DNA of 64,000 nucleotides from Acidobacteriota bacterium (GCA_019244185.1 JAFATB010000020.1:1-64000), one strand, 5' to 3'; numbered from the stretch's first letter, positions 2,722 to 25,694 are shown. The notes: a model not told the origin generated them from the sequence alone. Made by a program: numbers and translations.

Positions 2722-2724
2722 CGA

Positions 2725-7858: not shown

Positions 7859-7864
7859 GGCTCG

Positions 7865-8728: not shown

Positions 8729-8773
8729 CGTACACGAGCGTTTCGCGTTCACGGCGGAGTTATCATCGCAGCG

Positions 8774-8859
8774 GCCCCGGTGGCGGAACCGGTAGACGCT
8801 GCGGACTTAAAATCCGCTGCCGCGTGAGCGGCGTGCCGGTTCGAGTCCGGCCCGGGGCA
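8774..8859 (+). tRNA. tRNA-Leu (anticodon TAA)
   Basis: Acceptor GCCCCGG/CCGGGGC-A, D-arm TGGCGGAACCGGTAGACGC, anticodon arm GCGGA-CTTAAAA-TCCGC, long variable arm, T-arm GCCGG-TTCGAGT-CCGGC. CCA not encoded. Confidence 0.95.
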
Positions 8860-8879
8860 TGGCGCGTCGGGCTGCGCGC

Positions 8880-9515
8880 TCACGGCTCCAGCTGCCGCAC
8901 GACGCGCATCGGATTGCCCGCGACGAGCGTGAAGGCCTCGACGTCTTTCGTGACCATCGTGCCCGCGGAGACGATCGCGCCGCGCCCGATGTGCACGCCT
9001 TTGAGGATCGTCGACTTCGCGCCGATCCAGACGTCGTCTTCGATGACGATGCGCCGCATCGAAACGTGCGTGAAATCGATCTCGACGCGCCGCTCGAAGA
9101 GATCGCGCGCTTCCTCGCGCCGCTGATCCGCGCGCAGCGAGTGCGAGTCGTGATCGAGGATGTCGACGCCATGCGCGATGAGCACGTAATCGCCGATGGT
9201 GATTCCGTCGGCGGCCCAGATGCGCGTCTGCGGCCCGATGTAGCAGTCGCGTCCGATGCGGATCGACGCGTCCGGCGTCAGCACGCGCACTTCACCACGC
9301 ACGTTCGTGTAGTCACCGATCGCGAGCCGGTCGCGCGCGGCGAGGTTCGACAGACTCCCCTCCGGCAGAAGCCGCACCGTCGGCGCGATCGCACCGGCCT
9401 GACGCAGCGCGTCCTCGCGCCGCGTGCTCGGCCGCACGTCGTCGAGATGCTCGAGGCGGCTCCGCAAGCGCAACAGCAGCGGATCCGCGATCTTCCAGAA
9501 CCACTCCCCGATCAC
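8880..9515 (-). CDS. Hexapeptide-repeat (LbH) O-acyltransferase, copy 2
   Basis: [37 protein letters not shown]...VAGNP; clear paralog of 5982-6614 (shared DPLLL..R.RLEHLD N-terminus). Confidence 0.88.
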   Translation of the reverse strand: MIGEWFWKIADPLLLRLRSRLEHLDDVRPSTRREDALRQAGAIAPTVRLLPEGSLSNLAARDRLAIGDYTNVRGEVRVLTPDASIRIGRDCYIGPQTRIWAADGITIGDYVLIAHGVDILDHDSHSLRADQRREEARDLFERRVEIDFTHVSMRRIVIEDDVWIGAKSTILKGVHIGRGAIVSAGTMVTKDVEAFTLVAGNPMRVVRQLEP

Positions 9516-10726
9516 TCCCCCTCCTCGGCCGTCCACGGCAGCACAGGCACCACGCGTGCCGTGCGCCCGTCGCGCGCGGCGATGCTGTTCTGTTCCGTGA
9601 TCGTGAAGTTCAGCACGCCCTCGTGCAGACGTTGCGCGTCCGCGAACGGCTCGGACACCGTCACGAAGTAACGCCCCGGCCGCAATAGCGATCCCGGAAT
9701 CTCGCAGCGCAAGCGCCGCCGTCCGAGCGGCATCGCATGGTTGAGCGTGGGCGTCGCGTCCGTGCTCGCCGATGCGAGCACGACCTCCCCATCCTCGGCG
9801 AGCAACGCGAACGCGAGCCGGTTCGGCGGCATCGCCGCGTGCACCGTGAAGTCGAAGGCGATCTCGAACGCGGCGTCGGCGGGAAACGCGTCGCCTTCCG
9901 CACGCGCACACGTCAGCCGCACCTCGTGATAGCGGAAGGCGGGATTGCGCTCGTCGGGCGGACGCCACACGAGCTCGGACGAGACACCCGACGATAGATA
10001 CGCGGCGACGGTGGACGACGCGGCGCCGTCGCGCACGAGCTTCCCCGCATCGAGCCACAGCGCGCGTTCGCACAGCGCGGTCACGACGCTCATGTTGTGG
10101 CTCACCACGACGACCGTCCTTCCTTCATGCCCGATCGCCTCCATTTTGCCGAGGCATTTCTTCTGGAAGGCGGCATCGCCGACGGCGAGGACTTCGTCGA
10201 CGAGCAGGATTTCCGGATCGACGTGCGCGGCGACGGCGAAGGCGAGCCGCACGAACATGCCGGACGAGTAGCGCTTGACGGGCGTGTCGAGCAGGCGGCC
10301 GATGTCGGCGAACGCGACGATCTCGTCGAACTTGCGGCGGATGTCGGCGCGCGACATGCCGAGGATCGAGCCGTTGAGGAAGACGTTCTCGCGCCCGGTG
10401 AGCTCGGGATGAAAGCCGGTGCCGACTTCGAGAAGGCTGGCGATGCGGCCGTAGACGCGCGCCTCCCCCACGGTCGGCTCGGTGATGCGGCTGAGGATCT
10501 TGAGCAGCGTGCTCTTGCCCGCGCCGTTGCGGCCGACGACGCCGACTACGGCGCCGCGCGGGATGTCGGCGGTGAGGTCGCGCAGCGCCCACAACTCGGA
10601 CGGTGCGGCGCGCCTGCGGAAGAGGCGCCCGGGCTCGGCGAGGATCTCGCGCAACTGGCGCTGCTCCCACGCGGTGCCGATCGCGTAGCGCTTGCCGAGG
10701 TCGTGGATCGTGATCGCAGCGGTCAT
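9512..10726 (-). CDS. wzt: Polysaccharide ABC exporter ATP-binding protein (Wzt), copy 2
   Basis: [35 protein letters not shown]; C-terminal domain paralogous to copy 1. Confidence 0.88.
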   Translation of the reverse strand: MTAAITIHDLGKRYAIGTAWEQRQLREILAEPGRLFRRRAAPSELWALRDLTADIPRGAVVGVVGRNGAGKSTLLKILSRITEPTVGEARVYGRIASLLEVGTGFHPELTGRENVFLNGSILGMSRADIRRKFDEIVAFADIGRLLDTPVKRYSSGMFVRLAFAVAAHVDPEILLVDEVLAVGDAAFQKKCLGKMEAIGHEGRTVVVVSHNMSVVTALCERALWLDAGKLVRDGAASSTVAAYLSSGVSSELVWRPPDERNPAFRYHEVRLTCARAEGDAFPADAAFEIAFDFTVHAAMPPNRLAFALLAEDGEVVLASASTDATPTLNHAMPLGRRRLRCEIPGSLLRPGRYFVTVSEPFADAQRLHEGVLNFTITEQNSIAARDGRTARVVPVLPWTAEEGE

Positions 10727-10816
10727 CGTGCGCGTGAAGCCGGGCGCTTCCGTCGCGGACGCGACATCGTACACGGTCGAGTTATGATTCCGCCGCTACT
10801 TCACTCGGAGGATTCC

Positions 10817-11998
10817 ATGACCACGCAGACCGTTGAACTCACGCCGGGAGCGCCGCTGACGCTGCTCTCCGAAGACGAGCAGATGTTCCAGCAGAGCGTT
10901 CGCGATTTCGCGATCGAGAAGATCCGGCCGCTGGTCCACCAGATGGATCGCGACGCGACGATGTCGAAGGATCTGATCGCGAGTTTCTTCGACCTCGGCA
11001 TCATGGGCATCGAAGTCCCCGACCAGTTCGGCGGCGCCGGCTCGACGTTCTTCACCGCGGTGCTCGTCGTCGAGGAGCTCTCGCACGTCGACGCGTCGTG
11101 CGGCGTGCTCGTCGACGTGCAGAACACGCTCGTCAACAACGCGCTCATCCGCTGGGGCAACGACGATCAGAAGTCGAAGTACCTGCGCATGCTCGCCACC
11201 GATACGGTCGGCGCGTACGCGCTGTCCGAGGCCGGATCGGGATCGGATGCGTTCGCGCTGGCGACACGCGCGCAGGAGAACGGCGATCACTTCGTGCTCA
11301 ACGGCCGCAAGCTGTGGATCACGAACGCGGCGGAAGCGGGCGTGTTCATTGTCTTCGCGAACGCGAACCCCGACGCCGGTTACAAAGGCATCACCGCGTT
11401 TCTCATCGAGCGCGACTTCCCCGGGTTCTCCGTCGGCAAGAAGGAAGACAAGACCGGCATCCGCGCGTCGTCGACGTGCGAGCTGATCCTCGAAGACTGC
11501 CGCGTGCCGCGCGAGAACGTCCTCGGCGAATTAGGCAAGGGCTACAAGATCGCCATCGAGACGCTGAACGAGGGACGCATCGGCATCGGCGCGCAGATGC
11601 TCGGCGTCGCACGCGGCGCGCTCGAACACGCGATCGCGTACACGAAGGAGCGTAAGCAGTTCGGCCAGAAGATCGCCGAGTTCCAGGGCGTGCAGTTCCA
11701 GATCGCGCAGGCCGCGACCGATCTCGAGGCCGCGCGCCTCATGGTCTACAACGCCGCGCGGCTCAAGGACGCCGGCCAGCCGTTCCTCCGCGAGGCGGCG
11801 ATGGCGAAGCTCTTCTCCTCGCAGGTCGCCGAGCGCGTGACGTCGCTGGCCGTGCAGCTCTACGGCGGCAACGGCTACACGAAGGAGTATCCGGTCGAGA
11901 AGTTCTGGCGCGACTCGAAGGTCGGCCAGATCTACGAAGGCACGAGCAACATGCAGTTGCAGACGATCGCGAAAACGATCGTGACCGGCAAGCTGTAG
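10817..11998 (+). CDS. Acyl-CoA dehydrogenase (short/branched-chain type)
   Basis: YALSEAGSGSDA, LNGRKLWITN, GIRASSTCEL, IYEGTSNMQ; SD GGAGG before ATG 10817. Confidence 0.93.
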   Translation: MTTQTVELTPGAPLTLLSEDEQMFQQSVRDFAIEKIRPLVHQMDRDATMSKDLIASFFDLGIMGIEVPDQFGGAGSTFFTAVLVVEELSHVDASCGVLVDVQNTLVNNALIRWGNDDQKSKYLRMLATDTVGAYALSEAGSGSDAFALATRAQENGDHFVLNGRKLWITNAAEAGVFIVFANANPDAGYKGITAFLIERDFPGFSVGKKEDKTGIRASSTCELILEDCRVPRENVLGELGKGYKIAIETLNEGRIGIGAQMLGVARGALEHAIAYTKERKQFGQKIAEFQGVQFQIAQAATDLEAARLMVYNAARLKDAGQPFLREAAMAKLFSSQVAERVTSLAVQLYGGNGYTKEYPVEKFWRDSKVGQIYEGTSNMQLQTIAKTIVTGKL

Positions 11999-12005
11999 GC
12001 GCGCT

Positions 12006-14168
12006 TTAGACGGCGGCCTTCGCGCGCTCTTCCGCGACGACGCCCACGTCCGCGTGAGTCAGATGATCGACGCGCGCGGCGTCGCTGTAGCGCGCGCCGT
12101 GCCGCGCGAGCAGTTCGCGGCTCTCGCTCCGCGCGTCGGCGATCATGCGCAAGTGCCACAGCGGATGGCGCAGCACCGCGCGCCGCGCGTCCGCGCGTCC
12201 CATGGAACTGAGCAGCGAGAAGCGGGCGATCGGCACGAGGTCGCGCAGCCGCAGGCGGAACGGCGGAGCGGCGGCGATGCGCTGGCGGAACATGCACGCG
12301 CGCGCCGACGCGCGGCGAATTTCTTCATAGGGAGCCGTGCGGATCGCGCAGCCGCCGTCGTACGTCGGCGTGTGCTCGATGAAGAGCGACGCATCGGACC
12401 AGATGGTCATTCCGCGCGCGCGCATCCGCGTGGACAGCTCCCAGTCCTCCGCCATGTGCCCGAACGCGAACAGCAGATCGTCGTAGCCGCCCGACTTGCG
12501 GAAGTACTCGCGCTCGAACGCGACGCCGCCGCTTCCCGCGCGATTCACGGGAAAGATCGACGAGCCGGCGATCGCGCGTCCGCGTCGATGAAAGCGCTGC
12601 CACGCGTGCAGCGCGGCCTCGCGCTTGCCGGGGAAATGCACGATCGGCCAGAGGCACCGCACTTGCGGATGGCGGCGGAAGGCGTCGAGCATCTGCGCGA
12701 CGAACTCCGGGCCGATCACTTCGTCGTCGTCGAGGAAGAGCACGTGCGTCGACGTCGCGCGCAGGAATCCGGCGTTGCGCGCCGCCGCGGCGTTCGGTTG
12801 GTCGAGCATGACGCGCGTCAGGCGCACGCGCGTCTCGCGCAGCACGTCGTCGAGAAAGCCCGGCGCGTTCTGATCGACGACGAGCACTTCGGACGGCGTG
12901 ACGGTTTGCGCCTCGATCGACGCGAGCAACCGTCGCAGCGCCTCCGTCCGTCGATAGGTCGGGATGACGACCGCGAGCGAGATGCGCGTCGAGCGCGGCG
13001 GCGCGTGCTCGTGTCCGCGCCCGCCGTACCGCGTCGCGAGACGGATCGGACGCAGCATCCAATGCAGCCACCCGAGCCCGCGCGGCAGCCGGAGCCACGC
13101 GCGATCGCGCGCGTTCGGCGCGAGCTGGCGGTGCAGATACGTCGCGCGCTGGTCGTGCGTCTCGCGCACGGCGAGCTCGCAGCGCAAGCGCGCAATCAAC
13201 CCCGGCGCGTGCTCGCCGCGCGAAGCGGCATCCATCCGCTGCACCGCCAGCGCCGCCGCCCTCGCAAGTCGCCTCGGCGACGACGACAGGCACCGCCGCA
13301 CATCCGCCGGCACCGGCGCGTCGAAGAGCTCCGCCGCGAGATGCAGGCCGAGGGCGACGCGATGGCGCGCGTCGATCGCGGTGGCGCGCTCGACGAGCGC
13401 GTCCCAGTCGAATGCCGGATGCGCGCGCAGCAGCGCCGCGAGATCGATCGTCCAGAGCAGCCGGCTCCACATGTGCCGCGCACCGTGCAAACAGAGATAC
13501 AGCAGCAGATCCTCGGCTGCGATGACCGGCACCGCGCGTCCGAACAGCGGACGCGGCTCGCAGCGCGCGAGCACTGCCTCGAGATCGACCGGCGCGGTGT
13601 AGAAGTTGCCGATCAGCTCCGTATGCAGCTCGACCAGCGTGCCCTGCGCGGCGGTCGCGGGGAGCAGATGCGCCTCGCTCTCCCACCGCTCGTGATCGTG
13701 TTCGTCGATGGCCGGTTCGACGCGCTGATAGCCGGCGTCACCGAGGATGGCGACGGCGCGATCGAGATCGGCGGCGCGGAGGATGAGATCGAGATCGCCG
13801 CTCGCGCCGCGCATGCCCACGTGGCCGTACGCGGTCGCGGCGAGCACGGGACCTTTCACCGGCAGCGCGGTGATGCCGTGGGTCTCGAAGAGATCGAGCA
13901 GCACGCGCAGCTGGCGCGTGAGCACGAGCGTGCGCTCGGTCTGGCTGCGCGCGAGCGTGCGCACGCGCGTCACGACGTCGTCGGGCGCGCCGCTGGAACG
14001 GAGCACGCGGTCGAGCAGCACGATCGCGCCGTGCTGTTCCGCCGCGGCGACGAGCGTGTTCGCATCGAGATCGCGCGGCCATGTCCCGCGGTCGGCGGTG
14101 CCGAGCGCCGCACGGACCGCGGCGGCGAGAAACTGAAGCTCGGGTGCGCGCAGCTCGATCATCGTCAT
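12006..14168 (-). CDS. Fusion of NTP_transf_5-type nucleotidyltransferase (N-term) and GT2 glycosyltransferase (C-term)
   Basis: N-term LPVKGPVLA..AYG..GMRGASGDLDLIL, VELH, HGARHMWSRLLWTIDL; C-term VVIPTYRR, VVDQ, NAAAARNAG, FLDDD. Confidence 0.82.
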   Translation of the reverse strand: MTMIELRAPELQFLAAAVRAALGTADRGTWPRDLDANTLVAAAEQHGAIVLLDRVLRSSGAPDDVVTRVRTLARSQTERTLVLTRQLRVLLDLFETHGITALPVKGPVLAATAYGHVGMRGASGDLDLILRAADLDRAVAILGDAGYQRVEPAIDEHDHERWESEAHLLPATAAQGTLVELHTELIGNFYTAPVDLEAVLARCEPRPLFGRAVPVIAAEDLLLYLCLHGARHMWSRLLWTIDLAALLRAHPAFDWDALVERATAIDARHRVALGLHLAAELFDAPVPADVRRCLSSSPRRLARAAALAVQRMDAASRGEHAPGLIARLRCELAVRETHDQRATYLHRQLAPNARDRAWLRLPRGLGWLHWMLRPIRLATRYGGRGHEHAPPRSTRISLAVVIPTYRRTEALRRLLASIEAQTVTPSEVLVVDQNAPGFLDDVLRETRVRLTRVMLDQPNAAAARNAGFLRATSTHVLFLDDDEVIGPEFVAQMLDAFRRHPQVRCLWPIVHFPGKREAALHAWQRFHRRGRAIAGSSIFPVNRAGSGGVAFEREYFRKSGGYDDLLFAFGHMAEDWELSTRMRARGMTIWSDASLFIEHTPTYDGGCAIRTAPYEEIRRASARACMFRQRIAAAPPFRLRLRDLVPIARFSLLSSMGRADARRAVLRHPLWHLRMIADARSESRELLARHGARYSDAARVDHLTHADVGVVAEERAKAAV

Positions 14169-15121
14169 CAGGCAGCGAGCGCGTCGACGAGCCGCGGCAG
14201 TTGCGCAAGATCGTCGCCCGCTTCGACGGTGTACATGGGAACCGCGTCGGCGACGCGCGCGCAGGCGCGCATGGTCATCGCGCGGCGCGACGCATCGAGA
14301 AAACGGCCGGAGTAGATGTTCTGCAGCAGCAGCGGTAACGCGTTGCGCGGCGGCACGGCGCGGATGCGCGGCTCTCCCCCGCCGGCGCGGCGCGGCTGCA
14401 GCAGGTAGATCGCCCGCAGCGCTCGCGGCTCGGGACAGAACGTGCCGTCGTCCGGCGAGAGCGCGACGAAGCGCTTGTCGCCGAGGATCGCGGCGGCGAA
14501 AACGCGCGGAAGCGTGTCGGCCGCGAAACCGGCGGCGCGCGCGGAGTCGGCGTAGAGACGCAGGCGCGGATATCCGGGCTGCACGCGGATGCCGTCGTCG
14601 TCGATCGCGAGCGCGGCGAGATCGTCGCTGAGGAGCGCGTGACCGCGCGCGACGAAGGCCGCGGCGGTCGTCGACTTGCCGGCGCCGGGCGTGCCCATGA
14701 GCGCGATCGCGCCGCCGTCCGTCGCGAGGACGCTCGCGTGCAGCAGCGGCACGCGGCGCAGATGCAGCGCGGCGGCGAGTCCGGGGCCTTGCAGCACGGA
14801 CGGGATGTCGTCGAGCATCGCGTCGTCGGTCCAGCGCACGGTGAGACGCGTCGCGTCGTTCGCGAAAGCCACGCTCCAGAAGCCGCCGTCGCGCTCGTCG
14901 ACATAGCGCAGCAGCCACGAGCCGTCGTCGCGATGCCAGAGCGTCTCGAAGCCGTTCTGCCAGAACGGCTCGTCGGCGCATTGGAACGCGTCGCTGGTGC
15001 GGCCCGCGAAGTCGATGACGATCTCCGGCGCGTCGCCGCGGCGCGGCGCGAGCCCCGGCAGCGCGCGGTTCGAGCGCAGCGTCAGGCCGTAGAGCCCGTA
15101 CTCGTGGTCAAAGCCGTTCAT
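14168..15121 (-). CDS. HPr kinase-like kinase (lasso-peptide kinase family)
   Basis: YGLYGLTLRSN start, PLLHASV, Walker A GTPGAGKSTT, LLSDDL, PGYPRLRL. Confidence 0.85.
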   Translation of the reverse strand: MNGFDHEYGLYGLTLRSNRALPGLAPRRGDAPEIVIDFAGRTSDAFQCADEPFWQNGFETLWHRDDGSWLLRYVDERDGGFWSVAFANDATRLTVRWTDDAMLDDIPSVLQGPGLAAALHLRRVPLLHASVLATDGGAIALMGTPGAGKSTTAAAFVARGHALLSDDLAALAIDDDGIRVQPGYPRLRLYADSARAAGFAADTLPRVFAAAILGDKRFVALSPDDGTFCPEPRALRAIYLLQPRRAGGGEPRIRAVPPRNALPLLLQNIYSGRFLDASRRAMTMRACARVADAVPMYTVEAGDDLAQLPRLVDALAA

Positions 15122-16692
15122 GTCGGAAGGAATGGGACGAGCGCTGCCGGCCGCCGGTCCCGCGGCACGAGCTCGGGCGAGACGAGGCAGGCGCGCGCGT
15201 AAAGCTCGTCCAGCTCGCTCGAATCCGAATTCGTTTCCTGGAGGACCCGGATGATCGCGGACAGTGCGAAGTAATCGTACGGCTGTTCGCGCAGAACCGC
15301 GCGAAAAAATGCGGATTTGTCGCGCTGCGCCGATGCCGACAAACGGAGGCGGATGAGCGGCGAGGCGACGGCGTCGAGATAGCGCGCGGCGTCGGCGGGA
15401 CGCACGCGCCGCGCGAGCCGCGCCTTCAGCTCCGCCGCGAGCTCGGCGTACAGCGGCGGCCACGCGATGCGTTCCGCGTGCGCGAACGCCTCGTCGTAGC
15501 GCGCGAGCGCTTCGAGCGTCGTCGCGACCGCCCACTGCGCCTGCACGTAGCCGGGATGCGCGTCCGCAATCGCGCGCGCGGTCTCCAGCGCTGCGTCCGG
15601 CTTCTGCATCGAAAACTCGAGGAGCCGCGACGCTTCGGGAGGCGCGGGGTCGATGACGAGCGGCGCATCGGCAACCGGTTGTGAAGGCAGCAGCGCGCGA
15701 TAGGCGTCGATGCGTTGTTGTCGCAGCGTCGCTTCGCCGCGCTCGCGTTGAGCCCACGCGTACGCGCGATCCGCAAACGCGTGGCATTCCGCGCGGTCGG
15801 CGTACAGCGCTTCGAGCGCGGCGCGCAGTTCGTCCGCGTCGCGGAAGAGCCGCGCGCGATCCGCGTGCGGGCGATGCAGCGGTGCGTCTTCGAGAAGCGG
15901 CACAACGGCGGACGCCGCGTATGTCGCGAACTTCGTGTCGGTGCGTCCGGCGTTGAAGCCGGAGTCGTGCAGCGGCGCGAGACCGGCGTGCAGTCCGCGC
16001 ACGAATTCGAGGTACGCGTCGTACGCGCCGAACGGCGCGACGCGCGTCTGTTCCGGCGCGATCGCGGCGAAGTGCCGCGCGAACATCGCCTCATCGCCCA
16101 TGAAGGCGAACGTCGCGTCGCGGTGCGCGGCGCAGAAGGCGACGATCGCCGGCGCGATGCGCGCGAGATCGGTTTCGTGCGACGTCGTGCCTCCCCAGCC
16201 GAAGACGAAGCCGTCCGGCTTGACCGGCCGCGGCGACGCGATGGGCACGTAAGGATCGAAGACGATCACGTTCGGATTCACATGGCGAAAGAGCTCGGCG
16301 AGGCCGGGCGCGTAGACCTGGACGGCGTCGCAGCGCGAGGCGTAGTGCAGCAGGTTCTGGCGCACGAGCGGGCTGCGGAAGAGATGTCGTTTCGGCAGCC
16401 AGTCGCCGAGGTCGAGGAAGTTGTCGCTGAACTCGAAGAGCGTCGGGAGGTTGCGCGCGCGGCGCAGGCGGAGCAGCGCGTCGATCTCGCGGTGCGGCAG
16501 CATGTGCACGACGACGAGATCGCTCGCGAGCACCGCGTCCGCGAACGCGGGATGCAGCGGATCGAGCGCGGCGACGCTCCAGCCTTCGTTTCCGTCGAGC
16601 AGCCAACGCAGCGACGCGACGTGCTGGATGTAGACGCCGTGGTTCTCGCCGCGCAGCTTCGACGGATGAACGATGACCAGCCGCCGCGTCAT
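15118..16692 (-). CDS. Glycosyltransferase-like (GT-B) protein with C-terminal helical/TPR-like region
   Basis: FEFSDNF, FGWGGTTSHETDL, AGLAPLHDSGFNAGRTDTKFATYAA resemble divergent GT4-like proteins; helical C-terminus. Confidence 0.65.
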   Translation of the reverse strand: MTRRLVIVHPSKLRGENHGVYIQHVASLRWLLDGNEGWSVAALDPLHPAFADAVLASDLVVVHMLPHREIDALLRLRRARNLPTLFEFSDNFLDLGDWLPKRHLFRSPLVRQNLLHYASRCDAVQVYAPGLAELFRHVNPNVIVFDPYVPIASPRPVKPDGFVFGWGGTTSHETDLARIAPAIVAFCAAHRDATFAFMGDEAMFARHFAAIAPEQTRVAPFGAYDAYLEFVRGLHAGLAPLHDSGFNAGRTDTKFATYAASAVVPLLEDAPLHRPHADRARLFRDADELRAALEALYADRAECHAFADRAYAWAQRERGEATLRQQRIDAYRALLPSQPVADAPLVIDPAPPEASRLLEFSMQKPDAALETARAIADAHPGYVQAQWAVATTLEALARYDEAFAHAERIAWPPLYAELAAELKARLARRVRPADAARYLDAVASPLIRLRLSASAQRDKSAFFRAVLREQPYDYFALSAIIRVLQETNSDSSELDELYARACLVSPELVPRDRRPAALVPFLPT

Positions 16693-16693
16693 C

Positions 16694-17809
16694 TCACGCC
16701 GTCTTCTGCCAGTACACGGCGGTCCAGTCGACGCGGCGCAGCGGCGCGGTGATGCCGCGCGACGCGCGGAAGTCGTCGACGGCGCGGCGGCAGACGACGA
16801 ACGCGTGGTAGTCGTCGACGACGACGAAACCGCCCGGAACGACTTTGTCGTAGAGCGCGGTCAGCACGTCCATCGTCGACGCGTAGAGATCCGCGTCGAT
16901 GCGCAGCAGCGCGAGGCGTTCGACCGGCGCCGCGGCGAGCGTCTCCGAAAACCAGCCGGGGATGAACTGCACCTCGTCGCTGAGCAGGTCGTACGTGCGG
17001 AAGTTGTCGCGCACGGCGTCGAGACTCGCGGCGAGCCACGGCTGTTTCGACTCGCTGAAGTCGATGCCGGCGTCGGGCTCAGACACCGGCTCGGGCAATC
17101 CCGCGAACGAGTCGGCCACCCACATGCGACGGTGCGGCTCGCCGTACGCGACCTGCAGCGCGCGCATGAAGATCGACGCGCCGCCCTGACACGCGCCCGC
17201 TTCGAGGAAGTCGCCTTCGACGCCGGCGGCGAAGAGCTCCGACGCGCACCATTCGAGGTTCTCGAGGCGGCGCAGGCCGACCATCGTGTGCGAGTAGCGC
17301 GTGACGAGGCGGCGGAAGTTCTGCCCGTCGCGCTTGCAGGCGACGATCTCGTCGAACGTCGGCGCGTCGACGTAGCGGAGATCGCGCAGGCGCCGCTGGT
17401 CGGCGAGGCGGTCGCCGGTCGTGGGAGTGTGCTCGAGGTGATAGAGCCGCAGCTCGTGCTCGGGATAGATGAGATTGACGAGCGCCTTCTTGAGCAGATC
17501 GAGATAGCGACGGCGCATCCCCGCGCTCGCATCATCCGCATCGCGCACGTCGACGAAGCCGAGCTCGCGCATGCGCCGCACGAAGGCCTCCGCCGACTCG
17601 GCACCTTCCTCCGCCTCCGCGGCGAAGCGCGCGCGCAATTCGCCGAGCGTGATCGGCTCGCGCAGCGACTCGAACATCGCCGCGGCGGTGTGATTGAGGC
17701 GGTAGCCGAGCCCCGTGTGCGGATGCGTCAGAACCGCGACGTCACCTTCGCGGACGAGCGACGGCGGACGGACGAAGGAGACGGGCTCGATGAGGAGGGA
17801 TTCGGACAT
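16694..17809 (-). CDS. PqqD/RRE-like domain fused to a TylF/MycF/NovP-family O-methyltransferase
   Basis: N-term ~85 aa YRLNHTAAAMFESL...ITLGEL...AEAFVRRMRELGFV is PqqD-like. C-term HTMVGLRRLENL, GDFLEAGACQGG, VADSFAGLP, GWFSETL, LRIDADLYAST, GGFVVVDDY are TylF motifs. Confidence 0.85.
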   Translation of the reverse strand: MSESLLIEPVSFVRPPSLVREGDVAVLTHPHTGLGYRLNHTAAAMFESLREPITLGELRARFAAEAEEGAESAEAFVRRMRELGFVDVRDADDASAGMRRRYLDLLKKALVNLIYPEHELRLYHLEHTPTTGDRLADQRRLRDLRYVDAPTFDEIVACKRDGQNFRRLVTRYSHTMVGLRRLENLEWCASELFAAGVEGDFLEAGACQGGASIFMRALQVAYGEPHRRMWVADSFAGLPEPVSEPDAGIDFSESKQPWLAASLDAVRDNFRTYDLLSDEVQFIPGWFSETLAAAPVERLALLRIDADLYASTMDVLTALYDKVVPGGFVVVDDYHAFVVCRRAVDDFRASRGITAPLRRVDWTAVYWQKTA

Positions 17810-17840
17810 AAAAAGAAGCGCCGCGGACGAGCCGCGGCGC
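17810..17840 (-). terminator. Intrinsic terminator/attenuator after the precursor gene
   Basis: Minus strand GCGCCGCGG-CTCGT-CCGCGGCGC-TTCTTTTT directly before the methyltransferase ATG. Confidence 0.65.
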
Positions 17841-17865
17841 GCGTACCGGGACGTTGTCAGTACCG

Positions 17866-18012
17866 TTAGACGGTGTAAATCCCGAGGTCCGAGACGCCGC
17901 CGAAGATGTACGCCGCCTCGGTGGCCGCGTAGTCGATTTCCTCGATCGTCGGCGCTTCCCACGGACGCTTCTCCGTCGTCGTTTCAATGGTGTCTGGCTT
18001 CTTCTGGTTCAC
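17866..18012 (-). CDS. Lasso peptide precursor (48 aa): MNQKKPDTIETTTEKRPWEAPTIEEIDYAATEAAYIFGGVSDLGIYTV
   Basis: Hand-translated. SD GGGGAGGA, GTG start 18012, TAA stop 17866-17868; lasso leader motif WxxPxI; Thr near the leader end; lies directly after the cyclase gene. Confidence 0.88.
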   Translation of the reverse strand: MNQKKPDTIETTTEKRPWEAPTIEEIDYAATEAAYIFGGVSDLGIYTV

Positions 18013-18067: not shown

Positions 18068-19948
18068 TCAAGCACAATCTGCGAGAAACAACGCGAACAG
18101 CAGTGTGCGCGCGAACATCGGTGCGACAGCGAGCGCGGCCGCCGGCGCGCCGTCGCGAACGAGCGTCCAGCGGCGCTGCATCCCATCGAGATCGAGATAC
18201 TCGCGAACGGCCGGCGACGACGCGAGCGCGTTCATCGCGGCGTCGATCTCCGGCGCGTCGGCGCGCAACCGCAACGCGAGGTCCGCCCCCTGGCTGCCTC
18301 GCCGCGTGTTCCACTGCACCTCGGGCGGCAGAATGCCTTCCATCGCGCGGCGGATCAGCCAGCGATCGCGGTCGCCGCGCGCGAACTGCTCGTCCGGAAT
18401 GGCGAGACAGAACTCGAGCAGGCGGACGTCCGCGGTCGGATCGACGACCTCGAGTCCGTACCCTGCCCCGCTCTCGTGCCAGATCGCGCCGATCGGATTG
18501 ATGTCGGGCAGCAGCACGCGCAGCCGCTGCGCGCGCACGTCGAGGACGCCGCTCTGCAGCGGATCGTAGCCGGCCGCGCGCATGCGGTCGCCGATGCGCA
18601 TGCGCCGCGCGAACGCGGGATGCATGACGTCGTGGCGCGCGAGGATGCCTTCGGACCAGCCGCGGCGGAACGCGAATGAATATGCGCGCGCCCGCAGCGG
18701 ACGCGCGAGCTGCGCGGAAACCGCGCGCGCGAACGAGGTGCGCCGGTTGCGCTGAAATTCGCGCAACGCACGGTACGTGTCGAGCCAGCGTCCGCGCAGA
18801 AACGACCGCAGCGCGTGCTGCTGATCGCCGCTCCACGAGACGCCGCCGTTGCCGAGCTGTCCGGTCAGCAGCACGCCGGCGTCCGCGCGTTGCGATTCCG
18901 CGAGCAGGTCGATGATCCAGTGCAGGTTGCCCGCGGCGAACTCCGGCTCGTCGTGCAGAAAGAGCGAGCGCCGGAACGCGTCCAGCGTCGTGACGCGCTC
19001 CGCGCGCAGCGGACGGTGATCCTCGATGCCGCAACGCTCCGCGACGACATGCGCGAGCCGCCATTCGTCGACGACGACGCGCGGCAGCAACTGCGCGATC
19101 TCCGCGAAACGCGGCACGGACGTGAACGCCGTCAACCGCAATGGCGCCGCCGCGCGCGCCGCCAGCGCCGTCACCGAGCCGGAGTCGAGTCCAGAGCTGA
19201 GCGTCGTTGCGATGCGCCGGCTCGTGCGGATCCGTGCGCGGACGGCGGCGTCGTAGCGCGCGAGAAAGGCCTCGACGTAAGCGGCATCGTTCGGCAGCCG
19301 CAACTCCGGCAAGTCTTCCGGATGCCAGTAGCGCGTGAGCCGCGTGCCGCTCGCCGTGACGACGAGGTGATGCCCCGGCGGCAGGCGAAAGACGTCTTCG
19401 TGCAGCGTCGCCGCGCCGTCCGTCGGCCAGAACGCGAGATGCTGCGCGAGCCGCAGCTCGTTGAGCCGCCGCGGCACATAGGACAGCGCGAAGAGCGCCT
19501 TGCGACTGGACGCGAATGCGAACGCGTCGCCGCTGCGATGGTGATAGAGCGCGGTGTTGCCGAAGTGATCGCGCGCGACGAACAAACGCCGCGCGCGCGC
19601 GTCCCACGCCGCAAAGGACCAGTCGCCGTACAGCCGCGTGCACGCGTCTTCGCGCCAGCGTTCGTACGCGGCGGCGACGAGCGCGCGGTCGTCGACGTCG
19701 CCGAAGAGCGGCGTCAGTTCGTCGCGATTGTCGAGACGCGCGGTGGCGACGACGATCTCGCCCTTCGCGAGCCGCAGCACCGCGTCGTGCGCGGGCTCGT
19801 CGTGCGAGACGCGGCAGCCGATGGCGGCATGCGCGTCGGAAAATGCTCCGCCGTCGGGGCCCCAGTATGCGATGGCGTCGCGCATCGCCGCCGCTTCGCG
19901 CGCGTCCACCTCGCTATCGAAACGTACGAGCCCGTAGATCGCGCTCAA
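18068..19948 (-). CDS. Lasso peptide cyclase (asparagine synthetase-like, C protein)
   Basis: TTG start overlapping the B2 stop; N-term MSAIYG lacks the catalytic Cys of glutamine-dependent AsnB; ARDHFG, LSSGLDSGS PP-loop, LLTGQLGN, RWLIRRAMEGILP. Confidence 0.9.
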   Translation of the reverse strand: MSAIYGLVRFDSEVDAREAAAMRDAIAYWGPDGGAFSDAHAAIGCRVSHDEPAHDAVLRLAKGEIVVATARLDNRDELTPLFGDVDDRALVAAAYERWREDACTRLYGDWSFAAWDARARRLFVARDHFGNTALYHHRSGDAFAFASSRKALFALSYVPRRLNELRLAQHLAFWPTDGAATLHEDVFRLPPGHHLVVTASGTRLTRYWHPEDLPELRLPNDAAYVEAFLARYDAAVRARIRTSRRIATTLSSGLDSGSVTALAARAAAPLRLTAFTSVPRFAEIAQLLPRVVVDEWRLAHVVAERCGIEDHRPLRAERVTTLDAFRRSLFLHDEPEFAAGNLHWIIDLLAESQRADAGVLLTGQLGNGGVSWSGDQQHALRSFLRGRWLDTYRALREFQRNRRTSFARAVSAQLARPLRARAYSFAFRRGWSEGILARHDVMHPAFARRMRIGDRMRAAGYDPLQSGVLDVRAQRLRVLLPDINPIGAIWHESGAGYGLEVVDPTADVRLLEFCLAIPDEQFARGDRDRWLIRRAMEGILPPEVQWNTRRGSQGADLALRLRADAPEIDAAMNALASSPAVREYLDLDGMQRRWTLVRDGAPAAALAVAPMFARTLLFALFLADCA

Positions 19949-20394
19949 CGCGCGGCCCCGTCGGCGAACGTCGAGACGACGGCGTAACGCGCGCGCTCGG
20001 CGCCGCCGGTGAGGTAGTAGTCGCCGCTGCGTACCCACGCGTGCGCTTCGACCTTCGTCTCGCCGCGCGCGACGCCGAGGTAGAGCGTGTTCGGGATGCG
20101 GCGGAAGCGCAGCATGAGCTTCGCGGCGAACGCCTGCTCGAGACACTTGCAACGCCACGGCGCGCGGCGGCTCACCGCGCCGATCGCCCACGCGATCCGG
20201 CGGATCGCATCGGCATGGCGCGCCTCGCCGCTCTTCGGCGACTCCTGCATGTGCGCGCCGAGGCGGCGCGAGAGAGCGTTGAACGGCACGAGCAGGATCG
20301 TCACGCGGCCGAGCCCCAGCCACACCGTGGCCTCGGCGAGCGCGAGCCAGTCGCGCCACGTGAGGCGGAGGACGACGCTACGGTTCTTCGACAA
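19945..20394 (-). CDS. Lasso peptide leader peptidase (B2, transglutaminase-like)
   Basis: APWRCKCLEQAFAAKLML...LYLGV...EAHAWV Cys/His motifs. Start uncertain (20394 or 20415). Confidence 0.92.
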   Translation of the reverse strand: MSKNRSVVLRLTWRDWLALAEATVWLGLGRVTILLVPFNALSRRLGAHMQESPKSGEARHADAIRRIAWAIGAVSRRAPWRCKCLEQAFAAKLMLRFRRIPNTLYLGVARGETKVEAHAWVRSGDYYLTGGAERARYAVVSTFADGAAR

Positions 20395-20662
20395 GGCGGA
20401 CGAGGCGCTTCGCATGCAGGCTCTGCAGGAACGGCAGCACGTCCGCCTCGCACTGCGACGCGCTGACGTCGTAGCGGTTCTCGAGCGTGGAGCAGAGCGC
20501 GCTGACGCGCGTCGGCTGCTCGAGCTGTTCCCAGATCGCGGCGGCGATCTCGTCGAGCACGAAGTAGGTTCCGGTTTCCATGTCCATCATCGCGAGCTCG
20601 TCGCCCATCGGAGCGCTGACGAGATCGCCGGTGCGGACGACGACGGCGTCGCGGCTGATCAT
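20378..20662 (-). CDS. Lasso peptide RRE (B1, PqqD family)
   Basis: MGDELAMMDMETGTYFVLDEIAAAIWEQLEQP...YDVSASQCEADVLPFLQSL, a typical PqqD pattern. Confidence 0.92.
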   Translation of the reverse strand: MISRDAVVVRTGDLVSAPMGDELAMMDMETGTYFVLDEIAAAIWEQLEQPTRVSALCSTLENRYDVSASQCEADVLPFLQSLHAKRLVRLVEEP

Positions 20663-20805
20663 GCGGGGCGGATTATCGCATGTCGTCGCGGCGCGCCTTT
20701 GCGCGGACCACTTCCCGACCCATCGGCGCAAACATTGAACCCTCATTCAGCCCGTTTCGGCTCAATGCACGACCCTCGGCCGGCGCAACTCGTTGAAAAT
20801 ACGTA

Positions 20806-21695: not shown

Positions 21696-22778
21696 ATGAA
21701 ACGCATTCTCTTCTGCACGCTCCTTTTCGCACCGTCTCTCTTCGCCGCCGATGTCACCGGTGCGTTCGAAGCGAACACCAAGTACGAGGCGCCGGTCGCG
21801 CACGCGCCGGCGAACGTCTCGCGCATGTTCGCGCGCGAGGTGCACGGCAACTCGATCGCCATTCCCGCGACCGGCGACGGCGGGATGATCGTGCTCGCGA
21901 TGACGCCGTCCGGCGCCGCGCGCACGCGCCTCACGACACCCGACGGCGCGGTGCTCGAGCCGTCGGAGAACGGCTCGCTCGAACGCGGACTGCGCCGCTT
22001 CGCCATCGACGCGAACGAGTCCGCGGAGCTCGGCCTGCCGCGCGGCGCGAATCACGTGCTGCACGTGCTGCACACGACCGCCGCGCGCTATCGCCTCGAT
22101 CTCGACACGCGCGAGCGCGCCGTTGTCGTCGCTGCGGAGCCGGACAGCTCCGTGACGCTCTCGACGTGGGCGGAGCCGCTCTCGCGGCAGCCGGGCGAGC
22201 CGGTGACGCTCGTCGCGGAGCTGCGCGACGGCAACGCGCCGATCACCGGCGCGCACGTCGTGGCGCGGCTCGCGTCGCCGGACGGTCACGCGTTCGATGC
22301 AGTCGCTCTGGTCGAGGAAGGCAACGGCGTCTATCGCGCGACGCTCGCCGACCTCCCGTCGCACGCGCCCGGCGCGTGGCAGGCGCGTTTCGACGCGGAC
22401 GGTCTCACGCCACGCGGCGCGGAGTTCGCGCGCACCGGCTCGGGCGAGCTCGTCGCTGAACGCGGCGCGGCGGACGTGCATCCGCGTTCGATCCACGCGG
22501 ACGTCGTCGGCGACGTGCTGCGCGTCAGCGCGAATGCGAACGTCCACGTCGCCGGCAACTATCGCTTTGATGTGATCGTCGCGCACGACGGAACGTCGCT
22601 GGCGTGGGGCGAGTCGGCGCGCGAGCTCGCGGCCGGCAACGCGCCGCTCGCCGTCGACATCCCGCTCGCGCTCATCGGCAACCGTTCTCCCGACGACTTG
22701 CTCCTCGACGTCCGCCTCCTCGGGCTCGACGCCGTGAACATGGGCGTGGCCGCGTCTTACCGCCGGTCGCCGCGCTGA
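21696..22778 (+). CDS. Secreted beta-rich hypothetical protein (choice-of-anchor X / DUF4785-like), probable hydrolase partner
   Basis: SD AAGGAG; signal peptide MKRILFCTLLFAPSLFA; EGNGVYRA motif; follows the hydrolase closely on the same strand. Confidence 0.6.
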   Translation: MKRILFCTLLFAPSLFAADVTGAFEANTKYEAPVAHAPANVSRMFAREVHGNSIAIPATGDGGMIVLAMTPSGAARTRLTTPDGAVLEPSENGSLERGLRRFAIDANESAELGLPRGANHVLHVLHTTAARYRLDLDTRERAVVVAAEPDSSVTLSTWAEPLSRQPGEPVTLVAELRDGNAPITGAHVVARLASPDGHAFDAVALVEEGNGVYRATLADLPSHAPGAWQARFDADGLTPRGAEFARTGSGELVAERGAADVHPRSIHADVVGDVLRVSANANVHVAGNYRFDVIVAHDGTSLAWGESARELAAGNAPLAVDIPLALIGNRSPDDLLLDVRLLGLDAVNMGVAASYRRSPR

Positions 22779-23245
22779 TGTTTCGCCAGACGCTGCAGGA
22801 AATCAGCGGCGATGCCGCCGCTGGTTTTCCGCAGCGTGAGCAGATAGACCGCGATCGCGACGATGCCGCCGAGGGCGCCGAGCGTGCCGAACTCGCGCTC
22901 GTGCGGGAAGAACGGCCAGAGCGTGAAGAGCACCGCGCCGATGACGCCGGCGAGGAGGAACAGCACGCGCTGCGCTTTCGGCGCGTCGAGATCGCGGTTG
23001 GCGACGAGACGAACCGTGGCCGTCGCGACGTCGGAGACGGCGGCGTCGGGTGCCCACGTCAGTGTGCACTCCACGGCGCCGGCGGACGCGTTGCCGCGCC
23101 GCAGCGGCAGCGCGAAGTCGCGCGCGCGTTCGCGTTCGGCCGTGACTTCGCCGCCGTAGAGCTCGACCAGCTCGCCGATCGCGGTCTCGATTCCGGCGAC
23201 CGGCACGCGGTCCTCGGTGAGCTCCAGCGGAGCGCGTTCGTTCAT
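22757..23245 (-). CDS. Hypothetical membrane protein (2 TM)
   Basis: SD AGGAG; two hydrophobic segments near the C-terminus. Confidence 0.65.
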   Translation of the reverse strand: MNERAPLELTEDRVPVAGIETAIGELVELYGGEVTAERERARDFALPLRRGNASAGAVECTLTWAPDAAVSDVATATVRLVANRDLDAPKAQRVLFLLAGVIGAVLFTLWPFFPHEREFGTLGALGGIVAIAVYLLTLRKTSGGIAADFLQRLAKHQRGDRR

Positions 23246-23385: not shown

Positions 23386-25095
23386 TCAGCGGCGTGCCTC
23401 CGGCTTGTGCGGAGGTTCCCTGAGCCACTGGCGCCGCAACTCGCTCGGCCCTGCGACAGCGAGTCCGATCTGCGGCCGCGGATCGCGCCGCGCGGTGAAT
23501 GCGAGCCGTCGCACGACGCCCGCGCGCGCGACGAGCAGCTCCGCGCTCTCGCCGATCTGCATCGCACGGAGCGCGCCCGCGAGCAGTTCCGGCGTGGCGA
23601 TGCGCGTCTCGCCGAGCGCGAGCAGCTCGTCGCCCGGCAGCAGGCCCGCGTCCATGCCCGCGCCGCCGCGCAGCACGGCGCTGACCATGAGCGATCCGCC
23701 GCTGCCGTCGAGCCGCGCGCCGAGCGAGGCGCCGTCGCGCGGAGTCGACGAGAACGCGAGTCCTACGCTGCCGAGGCATTCGTCGTATGGGAGCGGCTCG
23801 ACGCCGTCGACGTAGCGCGCGAAGAAGTCGTCGACGTCCGCGATCTTCGCGACGGTGCGTTCGAAGCCGTCTTCCTCGAGGCCGCGCCGCGGCACGCCGT
23901 ACTCGTCCCACAGCAGGCGCATGACGTCGTCGAGCGAGCGCTCGCCGTTCGTCGCGCGGCGGATCGCGAGATCGAGCAGCAACGCGACGAGCTGTCCTTT
24001 GTTGTAGAACGAGTACCACGCGTTGGCGTGATCGTGGTTGTACGCGGGATCGCTCAGCCAGCCGTCGAAGCTGGCCTGCGACAAAGGCACGTGCAGGCGC
24101 GCCGGCATGCCTTCGAGCGTTTCGATCTCGCGCCGCAGTTGTTCGACGTAGCGCGCGACGCTCCACACGCCGCCGCGCACGAGCGTGAGGTCGCCGTAGT
24201 ACGACGTCACGCCTTCCATCACCCACAGCAGGCGCGTCGGCGTCTCGTGCCAGTAGTCGTACGGCGTGAACGCGGCCGGCACGATCCGTTTGACATTCCA
24301 CGCGTGAAAGAGCTCGTGCGAGGTGATCGAGAGGAAGCGGTCGAAGCCCTCGTCGCCGGGTCCTCCGCCGAGGAGCTGCGAGCGGCGCGCGATGATGGAA
24401 CAGGAGTCTTCGTGCTCGACGCCGTGCCACCGTTCGCCGAGGTGATAGAGGAAGCGGTAGGTGTCGAACGGCAAGCCGCCGAAGAGCGCGGCCTGCGTAT
24501 GCGCGATGGCGCGGATCGGCTCGACGTACGACGCGGTGTCGAGACCTTCGGCGCCGCGGAAGACGAGATGAAAGGTGGCGTGCGATTCGTGAAATGTCTC
24601 GCGTGTGATGGTCGCCGCGGCGATGAGCGGCGAGTCGATGAGGTGATCGTAGTCGCGCGCGCGGAAGGTCTGCTCGTTCTCGCGCGGCAGCTGCGTCTCG
24701 ATGAGCCACTCCGCGGGCGCGGCGACGGTGAGGCGATGCTCTTCGTTGCGCAGGCCGTCGACGAGCATGAAGAGATTCGAGCCGTTGACATACGCCTCGT
24801 CGTCGTCGAGGAACGACGAGCCGGCGTCGAGGACGCCCGCGTAGAAGCGGTAGCGGACGGTGACTTCCTCCCCCGCCCGCGCGTCGACGCGCCACGACGA
24901 CTTGCCGTCCTTCGCGATGCCGTGCTCGCCCGCGGACCATTGCCGCACGTTCGCGGCGTAGTTCTGCACGAGGTAGCGGCCGGGACGCCAGACGGGTAAG
25001 AGCAGTCGCGGGGCGTCATGCGGAGCGGTGAACCGGAGCGTGACGTCGAAGAGCCGGTCGGTGGCGCGCTCCCACGAGAGGAGGTAGTGCAGCAT
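23386..25095 (-). CDS. M61 glycyl aminopeptidase with PDZ domain
   Basis: LPVWRPGRY, YDHLIDSP, GVEH, SHELFHAWNVKRI (HExxH), LWVMEGVTSYY, FYNKG, C-terminal AGLLPGDELLAL. Confidence 0.92.
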   Translation of the reverse strand: MLHYLLSWERATDRLFDVTLRFTAPHDAPRLLLPVWRPGRYLVQNYAANVRQWSAGEHGIAKDGKSSWRVDARAGEEVTVRYRFYAGVLDAGSSFLDDDEAYVNGSNLFMLVDGLRNEEHRLTVAAPAEWLIETQLPRENEQTFRARDYDHLIDSPLIAAATITRETFHESHATFHLVFRGAEGLDTASYVEPIRAIAHTQAALFGGLPFDTYRFLYHLGERWHGVEHEDSCSIIARRSQLLGGGPGDEGFDRFLSITSHELFHAWNVKRIVPAAFTPYDYWHETPTRLLWVMEGVTSYYGDLTLVRGGVWSVARYVEQLRREIETLEGMPARLHVPLSQASFDGWLSDPAYNHDHANAWYSFYNKGQLVALLLDLAIRRATNGERSLDDVMRLLWDEYGVPRRGLEEDGFERTVAKIADVDDFFARYVDGVEPLPYDECLGSVGLAFSSTPRDGASLGARLDGSGGSLMVSAVLRGGAGMDAGLLPGDELLALGETRIATPELLAGALRAMQIGESAELLVARAGVVRRLAFTARRDPRPQIGLAVAGPSELRRQWLREPPHKPEARR

Positions 25096-25145
25096 GCGCG
25101 CGCGATCATAGTGGAGCCGTCGTTGCGCGTTGATATACTTCCGGC

Positions 25146-25694
25146 ATGCCTGCCACAAAGATCATGGTCATCCGCCACGCGGAGAAGCCGACCGGCAGCG
25201 ACGACGGCGTGCTCCCGACCGGCAAGCGCAACGCCGACTCGCTGATCGTGCGCGGCTGGCAACGCGCCGGCGGCCTCGCCACGCTCTTCGCGCCGAGTCG
25301 CGGTCCGCTACAGGGCGCCCACCTCGCGACACCCGCGTTTCTCTACGCGTCGAAAACGGACGCGCGCAAGCACAGCCACCGCCCCTACCAGACCCTCGTC
25401 CCGCTCGCCGCGAAGCTCGGCCTCACGATCAACGACGCCTTCAAGAAGGACGAGTACGAGCTGATGCTCCTCGACGCCGGCGCCCGCGAAGGCACGGTCC
25501 TCATCGCCTGGCAGCACGAGTTCATCCCCCAGATCGGCAACACCATCACCGGCAACGACTCCACCGTCCCGCAGAAATGGCCGAGCAGCCGCTTCGACGT
25601 GGTGTGGGTATTCACCAGGCACGCGAAGGACTACGCGTTCGCGCAGGTGCCGCAGTTACTGCTGGCCGGGGATGAGGAAGAAGGGATCGGGTAA
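25146..25694 (+). CDS. Histidine phosphatase superfamily protein
   Basis: IMVIRHAEKP, RPYQT, VLIAWQHEFIP. Confidence 0.82.
   Translation: MPATKIMVIRHAEKPTGSDDGVLPTGKRNADSLIVRGWQRAGGLATLFAPSRGPLQGAHLATPAFLYASKTDARKHSHRPYQTLVPLAAKLGLTINDAFKKDEYELMLLDAGAREGTVLIAWQHEFIPQIGNTITGNDSTVPQKWPSSRFDVVWVFTRHAKDYAFAQVPQLLLAGDEEEGIG

Follow-up and report, generated by a model that had tools for sequence, protein, structure and literature searches.

What could a methyltransferase of the sugar-modifying TylF family be doing with a domain of the leader-binding type? The question is raised by a gene at positions 16694-17809, on the minus strand, of a 64,000-nucleotide stretch of DNA from an Acidobacteriota bacterium (GCA_019244185.1 JAFATB010000020.1:1-64000, hereafter the window), which lies in a lasso-peptide operon and encodes a RiPP recognition element (RRE) fused to a TylF-family domain. 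Our analysis identified this RRE-methyltransferase as a tailoring enzyme of the lasso-peptide pathway; its domain identities and its operon are established, as is the conservation of both the catalytic acidic residues and the gene partnership, and the enzyme probably O-methylates, under the guidance of the leader, a sugar carried by the still uncleaved precursor.

An RRE joined to a TylF-family methyltransferase

The gene runs from an ATG at 17809 to a stop at 16694, exactly the limits given by a first-pass annotation of the window, and encodes 371 amino acids (aa) with the N-terminus MSESLLIEP; homologues in a 30-sequence alignment share the same start position. The window has a G+C content of about 67%, and an open reading frame (ORF) on the opposite strand (16673-17869) was rejected as an Arg-rich shadow frame. 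The RRE occupies residues ~17-90 and the TylF-family domain, a predicted S-adenosylmethionine (SAM)- and metal-dependent O-methyltransferase, residues ~96-371. Both had been recognised from their motifs in the first-pass annotation, and both were recovered by Pfam above the cut-offs: PqqD (PF05402) in residues 26-86 with 25.8 bits (E 1.3e-5; cut-off 23.4 bits; 29.1 bits for the excised domain) and TylF (PF05711) in residues 100-369 with 278.7 bits (E 5.4e-83; cut-off 23), covering profile positions 2-264 of 264. The AlphaFold2 model of the whole protein, built from a 30-sequence alignment, had a mean predicted local distance difference test score (pLDDT) of 91.8 and a predicted template modelling score of 0.91.

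The resemblance of the N-terminus to the cluster's own B1 protein (20378-20662), which the annotation had also pointed out, was borne out by BLASTP (16/56 identical, E 1e-4) and by the comparison of a profile of 15 fused N-termini with one built from 10 B1 proteins of these loci (probability 99.4%, E 2.2e-21, 87 columns). When compared with solved structures, the N-terminal profile matched TbiB1 (E 6.6e-12), 9x90, named in its entry as a ‘lasso peptide biosynthesis PqqD family chaperone’ (4e-10), and TfuB1 (1.1e-9), with PqqD itself behind at 8.8e-4. In the AlphaFold2 model, strands at residues 17-21, 24-28 and 35-38 are followed by helices at 40-48, 55-62 and 69-82, with a pLDDT of 89-93 for residue blocks 1-60 and 71-90. 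Three strands and then three helices is the order demanded of an RRE (PMC12710340). A fold search with the whole model returned a list filled by methyltransferases, which matched mainly over residues 31-371 and barely covered the RRE part. PqqD was detected in 15/15 N-terminal segments of the fused proteins from related loci, and precomputed annotation placed it together with TylF in 116 of the 120 best database homologues, all of which are ~290-405 aa long. The RRE part is far less conserved than the catalytic part, with no invariant column among 15 sequences; the hydrophobic pattern common to B1 is still present. Judged by profiles and predicted structure, the N-terminal domain is a lasso-B1-type RRE.

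Among solved structures, the sequence of the catalytic part was matched best by SpnH (4cdz, 1.8e-60), followed by NovP (4.9e-54) and MycF (~1e-52). Structural comparison likewise gave SpnH (Z 28.3, rmsd 1.2, 193 aligned residues, 53% identity), then CalS11 as second best (Z 21.3), MeT1 of Mycobacterium hassiacum (Z 17.8) and generic catechol-type methyltransferases (Z ≤16), and Foldseek returned NovP at 2.5e-23. The domain thus has the class I SAM fold, and it retains the acidic DxD...DD residues of the family: in 30 fused homologues D305, D307 and D332 never vary and D333 is conserved to at least 90%, and the four line up with the SpnH and NovP motif DGD...DDY. From work on NovP and MycF we take these residues to be metal ligands and the general base. 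The entry titles of SpnH (acting on rhamnose), MycF and CalS11 describe sugar O-methyltransferases, and by both sequence and model the nearest relatives of the catalytic domain are enzymes methylating the hydroxyls of sugars (SpnH, NovP, MycF, CalS11). The likeness to the family lies in fold, motifs and acidic residues, with SpnH closest; TylF, NovP, MycF and SpnH are, however, single-domain proteins of ~250-280 aa that act on sugars of polyketide or aminocoumarin scaffolds, whereas the window enzyme has an N-terminal RRE and belongs to a ribosomal-peptide cluster. Furthermore, it is the sole TylF-family gene in the 5.3-Mb genome, which argues that it is not a general polysaccharide enzyme.

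The lasso operon and its relatives

The gene forms part of a minus-strand operon in the order B1, B2, cyclase, precursor, RRE-methyltransferase, GT-B+TPR glycosyltransferase, HPr-kinase-like protein and NTP_transf_5-GT2 fusion, and in the last four genes neighbouring starts and stops overlap by 1-4 bases. All components of a lasso cluster are found: the B1 RRE, the B2 peptidase, the cyclase and a precursor with a leader motif and an acidic ring acceptor. B1, a stand-alone PqqD-type RRE (leader-binding chaperone), reached 75.2 bits with Pfam PqqD on the longer ORF 20378-20746 and 71.8 bits with NCBIfam lasso_PqqD_Bac, under the cut-off of 80. B2, a transglutaminase-like leader peptidase of 156 aa (19945-20415), is concealed in a different frame beneath the over-extended cyclase ORF; an initial map without B2 was rejected once PF13471 (Transglut_core3) was found with 98.9 bits over a stop-free stretch at 19969-20298. 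The lasso macrolactam cyclase C, an Asn-synthase-like protein, extends from 18068 to ~19951 (start approximate) and was recognised by Pfam Asn_synthase and GATase_7; the NCBIfam model NF033535 gave 307 bits (cut-off 525), its match beginning at residue 138 of the 763-aa ORF.

The precursor gene A (17866-18012, minus strand, 48 aa) starts with GTG after GGGAGGA. Its leader contains W18-E-A-P21-T-I and T31-E, and its core ends in D42-L-G-I-Y46-T-V. The border between leader and core is ambiguous: Thr at -2 (border after T-E, before A) results in a 10-residue ring in the window, Thr at -3 in a 9-residue ring, and with Thr at -2 the ring acceptor Asp/Glu is core position 9 or 10 in most precursors of the window and L001-L017, the related loci described below. 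Known lasso peptides have rings of 7-9 residues, with which Thr at -3 agrees better. The tail behind the ring measures just 5-9 residues in these precursors. Between the precursor stop and the start of the RRE-methyltransferase lies a terminator-like hairpin (17818-17840, minus strand) of nine G-C pairs and a 5-nt loop, followed by TTCTTTTTAT; its predicted RNA fold (-26.1 kcal/mol, z -1.7) is unexceptional when compared with shuffled sequences. The hairpin may be an attenuator that lifts the precursor transcript above the enzyme transcript.

Downstream, at 15118-16692, a gene whose start overlaps the methyltransferase stop encodes a GT-B (GT4-like) glycosyltransferase of 524 aa with C-terminal TPR repeats. 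The protein had no Pfam match of its own; among 31 aligned homologues, Glyco_trans_1_2 was detected in 14 and TPR_19 in 16. Its AlphaFold2 model (pLDDT 94.8) was matched by Foldseek to the GT-B enzymes 7qsg, PimA, GlgM, SenB and MshA (E ~1e-8), its C-terminal third consists of helical repeats with a sequence match to the TPR region of O-GlcNAc transferase (E 1.7e-4), and a protein atlas search concurred with GT-B plus TPR. The HPr-kinase-like peptide kinase (14168-15121, P-loop GTPGAGKST) shares 39-50% identity with the kinase genes of L015, L007, L017, L008 and L004 (tblastn, E 7e-35 to 8e-84), homologues in which the Pfam matches to Hpr_kinase_C are weak and under the cut-off. The last gene (12006-14168) encodes a fusion of NTP_transf_5, a PsmN-type nucleotidyltransferase domain (170.6 bits), and GT2 (Glycos_transf_2, 66.6 bits). 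We rejected a kinase-less protein of 991 aa predicted from ORF 12006-14981: the first 305 aa of this long translation come from an Arg-rich wrong frame, and the kinase lies in another frame. The initial ORF map was therefore misleading, since long shadow ORFs conceal both B2 and the kinase.

A scan of one genome per species yielded 17 related loci (L001-L017). The fusion is present in 15 of them, from at least seven phyla, with the labels Thermoanaerobaculia, Acidobacteriota, Deinococcales, Longimicrobium, Solirubrobacteraceae, Elusimicrobia, Geobacter, ‘delta proteobacterium’, Allosphingosinicella, Bradyrhizobium and Pigmentiphaga; the other two (L013, L014) have a bare, unfused TylF gene in non-lasso surroundings. 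A precursor of the same family adjoins the gene in 15/15 fused loci. Its leader follows the pattern K-x-x-W-x-x-P-x-[ILVM] and then T-[ES], and its core ends in D-x3-Y with Ser/Thr closely after. When the window precursor was aligned with 12 precursors from 11 related loci, P21 was invariant and W18, T31, D42 and Y46 were at least 90% conserved; the precursors of four further loci were read outside this alignment. Ser is the C-terminal residue in 8/17 precursors, a set that includes that of the window, which ends in ...G-I-Y-T-V. L003 has two precursor genes in tandem (2285-2674), both of this family and with differing cores.

The partnership with a glycosyltransferase is constant, as this is the next enzyme gene downstream in 14/14 fused loci with downstream sequence (the sequence of L001 stops inside the fusion gene). 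It is of the GT-B+TPR type in 11 loci (L002-L009, L015-L017) and of the GT2 type in three (L010-L012), and in L009 the precursor gene is positioned between RRE-methyltransferase and glycosyltransferase. A kinase gene comes after the glycosyltransferase in 10/11 GT-B+TPR loci, the sequence of L006 ending too early, and also in L010; none was found in the locus sequence examined for L011 and L012. Pfam detected NTP_transf_5 in the window, L005, L007 and L008, and tblastn found it weakly in L016 and L017. Moreover, at least 30 of the listed methyltransferase homologues have a longest contig of the same length as that of a listed GT-B+TPR homologue, an indirect indication that the two genes are co-located. 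The surroundings vary in several loci. L009 (Pigmentiphaga humi) and L004 (metagenome-assembled genome of Allosphingosinicella) have B1, RRE-methyltransferase, precursor, GT-B+TPR and kinase, with no cyclase within the flanks examined and with cyclase-like and B2 genes elsewhere in the genomes, which could mean that the cluster is split or that the product is linear. In L015 the cyclase has no separate B1 or B2 beside it. Behind their RRE-methyltransferase and GT2 genes, L011 (5806-7307) and L012 (12095-14218) have another B1-cyclase pair, thus these loci may hold two adjoining lasso systems.

To place the fusion among TylF proteins, we took the best 150 representatives from a library of 1.84 billion proteins clustered at 50% identity; 18 of the 150 carry the RRE according to a 15-sequence RRE profile. 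A quick, unrooted maximum-likelihood tree of the TylF domain retained 118 of 151 rows, 33 having been dropped for fewer than 220 profile positions (four of them RRE-bearing). All 15 RRE rows in the tree are within one group of 18 rows (Shimodaira-Hasegawa-like approximate likelihood ratio test 98), the other three being a 236-aa fragment, a 278-aa protein and a CHASE3-PAS-TylF protein. The grouping in this unrooted tree fits one origin for the RRE-TylF fusion. In addition, the fusion itself occurs in longer proteins: P0249 (711 aa) is a triple fusion of PqqD, TylF and Hpr_kinase_C, and P0250 (584 aa) has a P-loop after TylF.

The substrate and the order of steps

We propose that the N-terminal RRE would dock on the precursor leader, most likely on the W-x-x-P-x-I motif recognised by the lasso B1, and that docking would keep the C-terminal TylF-type domain close to the short core tail. 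With SAM and a divalent metal, this domain would O-methylate a hydroxyl of a hexose or 6-deoxyhexose that the co-translated glycosyltransferase would have set on the tail, close to the invariant D-x3-Y-[S/T] segment. The sugar could be attached directly or via a phosphate from the HPr-kinase-like enzyme, the candidate sites being the invariant Tyr, the next Ser/Thr or a phosphate thereon, and tailoring would take place on the leader-bearing precursor, ahead of B2 cleavage and C cyclisation. Sugar methylation is supported because the nearest relatives methylate sugar hydroxyls, the gene is the only one of its family in the genome and the glycosyltransferase neighbour is constant; the leader-bearing precursor is suggested as the substrate by the RRE.

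Features of known lasso systems are compatible with such a route. Lasso RREs recognise a motif of the W/YxxPxL type, and the window leader bears a motif of this type (PMC12710340). The likeness to lasso B1/PqqD-type RREs such as TbiB1 and TfuB1 lies in the profile match of the fused N-terminus; B1 is a free protein of ~90 aa serving the peptidase, whereas in the window a second RRE is fused to the methyltransferase and the separate B1 is retained. The paeninodin and pseudomycoidin clusters (PadeK/PsmK, PsmN) share with the window the HPr-kinase-like kinase and NTP_transf_5. The C-terminal phosphorylated Ser of this type is absent from the window precursor, which ends in Y-T-V, and neither a methyltransferase nor a GT-B+TPR enzyme is reported for these clusters in the accessible parts of the literature searched, unlike in the window. 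In pseudomycoidin it is the C-terminal Ser that bears the phosphate; phosphorylation of precursors comes before cyclisation, and once full-length PsmA is phosphorylated, PsmN attaches one or two hexoses to this phosphate (PMC6993621). In Bradymonas sediminis, BsfK phosphorylates the precursor only, the core alone not being a substrate, and is strongly accelerated by the BsfB1 RRE; earlier lasso phosphorylations also precede leader excision (PMC10368454). Leader-dependent, RRE-assisted tailoring before leader removal thus has an experimental precedent in BsfK/BsfB1 (PMC10368454), where a free B1 acts in trans on a kinase, whereas the window RRE would act in cis on the methyltransferase. StspM, too, acts on the precursor before maturation (PMC9266682).

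The first-pass annotation had suggested leader-guided methylation of a sugar already on the precursor, and this is, considering sequence, model and analogy together, the best-supported of the readings. The lasso-B1-type RRE, the kinship with sugar methyltransferases, the glycosyltransferase partner in 14/14 loci and the kinase precedent all speak for it, and from these we infer that the leader is bound, that the methyl acceptor is a sugar, where this sugar is attached and in which order the steps take place. For the acceptor in particular, it is the closest relatives and the adjoining glycosyltransferase that point to a sugar hydroxyl.

Several observations weigh against this reading. No gene of sugar-nucleotide biosynthesis was found in the conserved cluster, the RmlC homologue of the genome being on another contig. 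Both NCBIfam models of the PqqD type that matched the N-terminus stayed under their cut-offs (17.3 vs 35 bits and 12.8 vs 70 bits). Three loci are without a nearby cyclase or B1/B2, thus the module need not serve a lasso peptide in every genome. The RRE-TylF-kinase fusions tie the methyltransferase to phosphate chemistry as much as to sugar, and the PDB title of CalS11, TDP-rhamnose 3'-O-methyltransferase, implies that members of the TylF family can act before glycosyl transfer. As to the order of steps, IgtG is known to glycosylate a mature lasso peptide (PMC11912497).

These points lead to other functions, of which the first keeps the RRE as guide and changes the acceptor. The TylF domain might methylate the phosphate added by the kinase to Ser/Thr of the tail, with a methyl phosphodiester as the product, or else a hydroxyl of the peptide, for example that of the invariant Tyr. 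Kinase genes follow the glycosyltransferase in nearly all GT-B+TPR loci and in L010, RRE, TylF and kinase are united in P0249 and, by its P-loop, P0250, and the invariant precursor Tyr is followed by Ser/Thr; a precedent for the chemistry is WbdD, a kinase plus methyltransferase that ends the O-antigen chain with a methyl phosphate cap. We nevertheless consider such an acceptor unlikely, as the catalytic core shares 53% identity with a rhamnose O-methyltransferase, all close solved relatives are described as sugar-acting, all 14 informative loci have the glycosyltransferase partner and L011 and L012 are without a kinase in the sequence examined.

A second possibility is that a nucleotide sugar is methylated before transfer, as by CalS11, and that the RRE is a scaffold assembling the tailoring enzymes on the leader or a B1 substitute for kinase, peptidase or cyclase. 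The rank of CalS11 as second-best structural match fits this, as does L015, where the fused RRE is the sole RRE nearby, and a stand-alone RRE serving two enzymes is known (BsfB1, PMC10368454). A soluble enzyme acting on nucleotide sugars would have no need of a peptide-binding domain, yet 18 of the best 150 representatives and 15 loci across phyla retain the fusion; moreover, SpnH, NovP and MycF, nearer in sequence than CalS11, act on attached sugars according to their entry titles, which makes this option quite improbable. Finally, that the N-terminal domain is a relic without peptide binding, in an ordinary sugar methyltransferase merely sited in the cluster, would suit its low conservation and the subthreshold NCBIfam scores, but is very improbable given PqqD in all fused loci and in almost all best homologues, the confidently modelled domain and the retained hydrophobic pattern of B1.

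Leader-guided sugar methylation could be part of a broader scheme, which we put forward tentatively and hold to be possible rather than probable. Very short-tailed lasso or lasso-like peptides, widespread in at least seven phyla, would have their tail capped on the precursor by a leader-docked set of kinase, glycosyltransferase and methyltransferase, yielding a phosphate- or Tyr/Thr-linked O-methylated sugar; the cap may be a steric lock, and L009 and L004 may make linear capped peptides.

Neighbouring genes and wider meaning

Further genes of the window were compared with the related loci. Genes at 3900-10774 (minus strand) encode two ABC ATPases of ~420 aa, an ABC-2 permease and a GT1 glycosyltransferase and resemble a polysaccharide exporter. 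These ABC-2 exporter and GT1 genes (3.9-10.8 kb) were rejected as part of the system, as no counterparts were found in the 17 loci except for one weak 26% ABC match in L010. The glycan enzymes linked with the peptide, a link drawn by the first-pass annotation, are those of the genes immediately downstream of the RRE-methyltransferase (15118-16692, 14168-15121 and 12006-14168) rather than those of the unconserved genes at 3.9-10.8 kb. At the end of the cluster, a gene of the acyl-CoA-dehydrogenase family is found in the window (~10860-11998, plus strand; the start of its 633-aa ORF is probably over-extended), L002 (13504-14622), L003 (6328-7446) and L005 (15710-17056); in the Deinococcales loci it is on the same strand, with 40% identity. 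Upstream of B1 are an M61 glycyl aminopeptidase with PDZ (23386-25158, minus strand) and a 162-aa protein (22757-23245, minus strand) without a Pfam or NCBIfam match. Both are kept in L005 (63% and 71%), the peptidase also in L017 (35%), and the peptidase could trim the leader or the N-terminus of the peptide. A TPR and CHAT-domain protein of 1015 aa (25816-28863, plus strand) and a CHASE4-HAMP Ser/Thr kinase (1-2724, minus strand, running past the window edge) seem unrelated to the fusion.

Methylated sugars are common on polyketide antibiotics. For lasso peptides, the reviews describe carboxyl methylation, aspartimide formation, phosphorylation, hexosylation by PsmN and glycosylation of Ser (PMC9266682, PMC13352647), and sugar methylation is mentioned in none of the accessible parts of the lasso reviews and papers searched, these two included. 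LasF and StspM, which methylate the C-terminal carboxyl, and the PIMT homologues LihM and TceM, which lead to aspartimide, resemble the window enzyme in being SAM-dependent lasso tailoring enzymes; they belong to other methyltransferase families acting on peptide carboxylates, and the accessible text of PMC9266682 describes no RRE fusion or sugar substrate for them. The RRE-glycosyltransferase (PF00535) fusions of the RRE-Finder studies are similar in that a leader-binding domain is fused to a glycan-related enzyme. The TylF fusion is unmentioned in the accessible main texts of these studies, the supplementary tables of PMC12710340 possibly listing PF05711, and in the original RRE-Finder preprint 1,050 retrieved methyltransferases were put aside as assumed false positives. 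A text search for literature pairing TylF with PqqD, or lasso peptide with macrocin O-methyltransferase, found none. Database names already hold the combination, NCBI calling some homologues ‘PqqD family peptide modification chaperone’ and JGI one ‘Macrocin-O-methyltransferase (TylF)/Coenzyme PQQ synthesis protein D’, so in the literature searched the architecture is annotated but undiscussed.

The RRE-TylF fusion adds a variant to the phosphorylated and glycosylated type of lasso peptide represented by paeninodin and pseudomycoidin, and the literature searched contained no paper describing it. Always neighboured by a glycosyltransferase gene where downstream sequence was available, it leads us to expect, in many bacterial phyla, a family of lasso peptides, as yet undescribed, that are sugar-decorated and methylated, and it is a simple genome-mining marker for unexplored products of soil and rhizosphere bacteria from several phyla. 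Moreover, methyltransferase matches once dismissed as false positives of RRE searches can be genuine. If the proposed function is true, a leader peptide can direct a glycan-tailoring step through a sugar methyltransferase with its own leader-binding domain, and this might provide a compact, portable RRE-plus-enzyme handle for the engineering of methylated glycopeptides.

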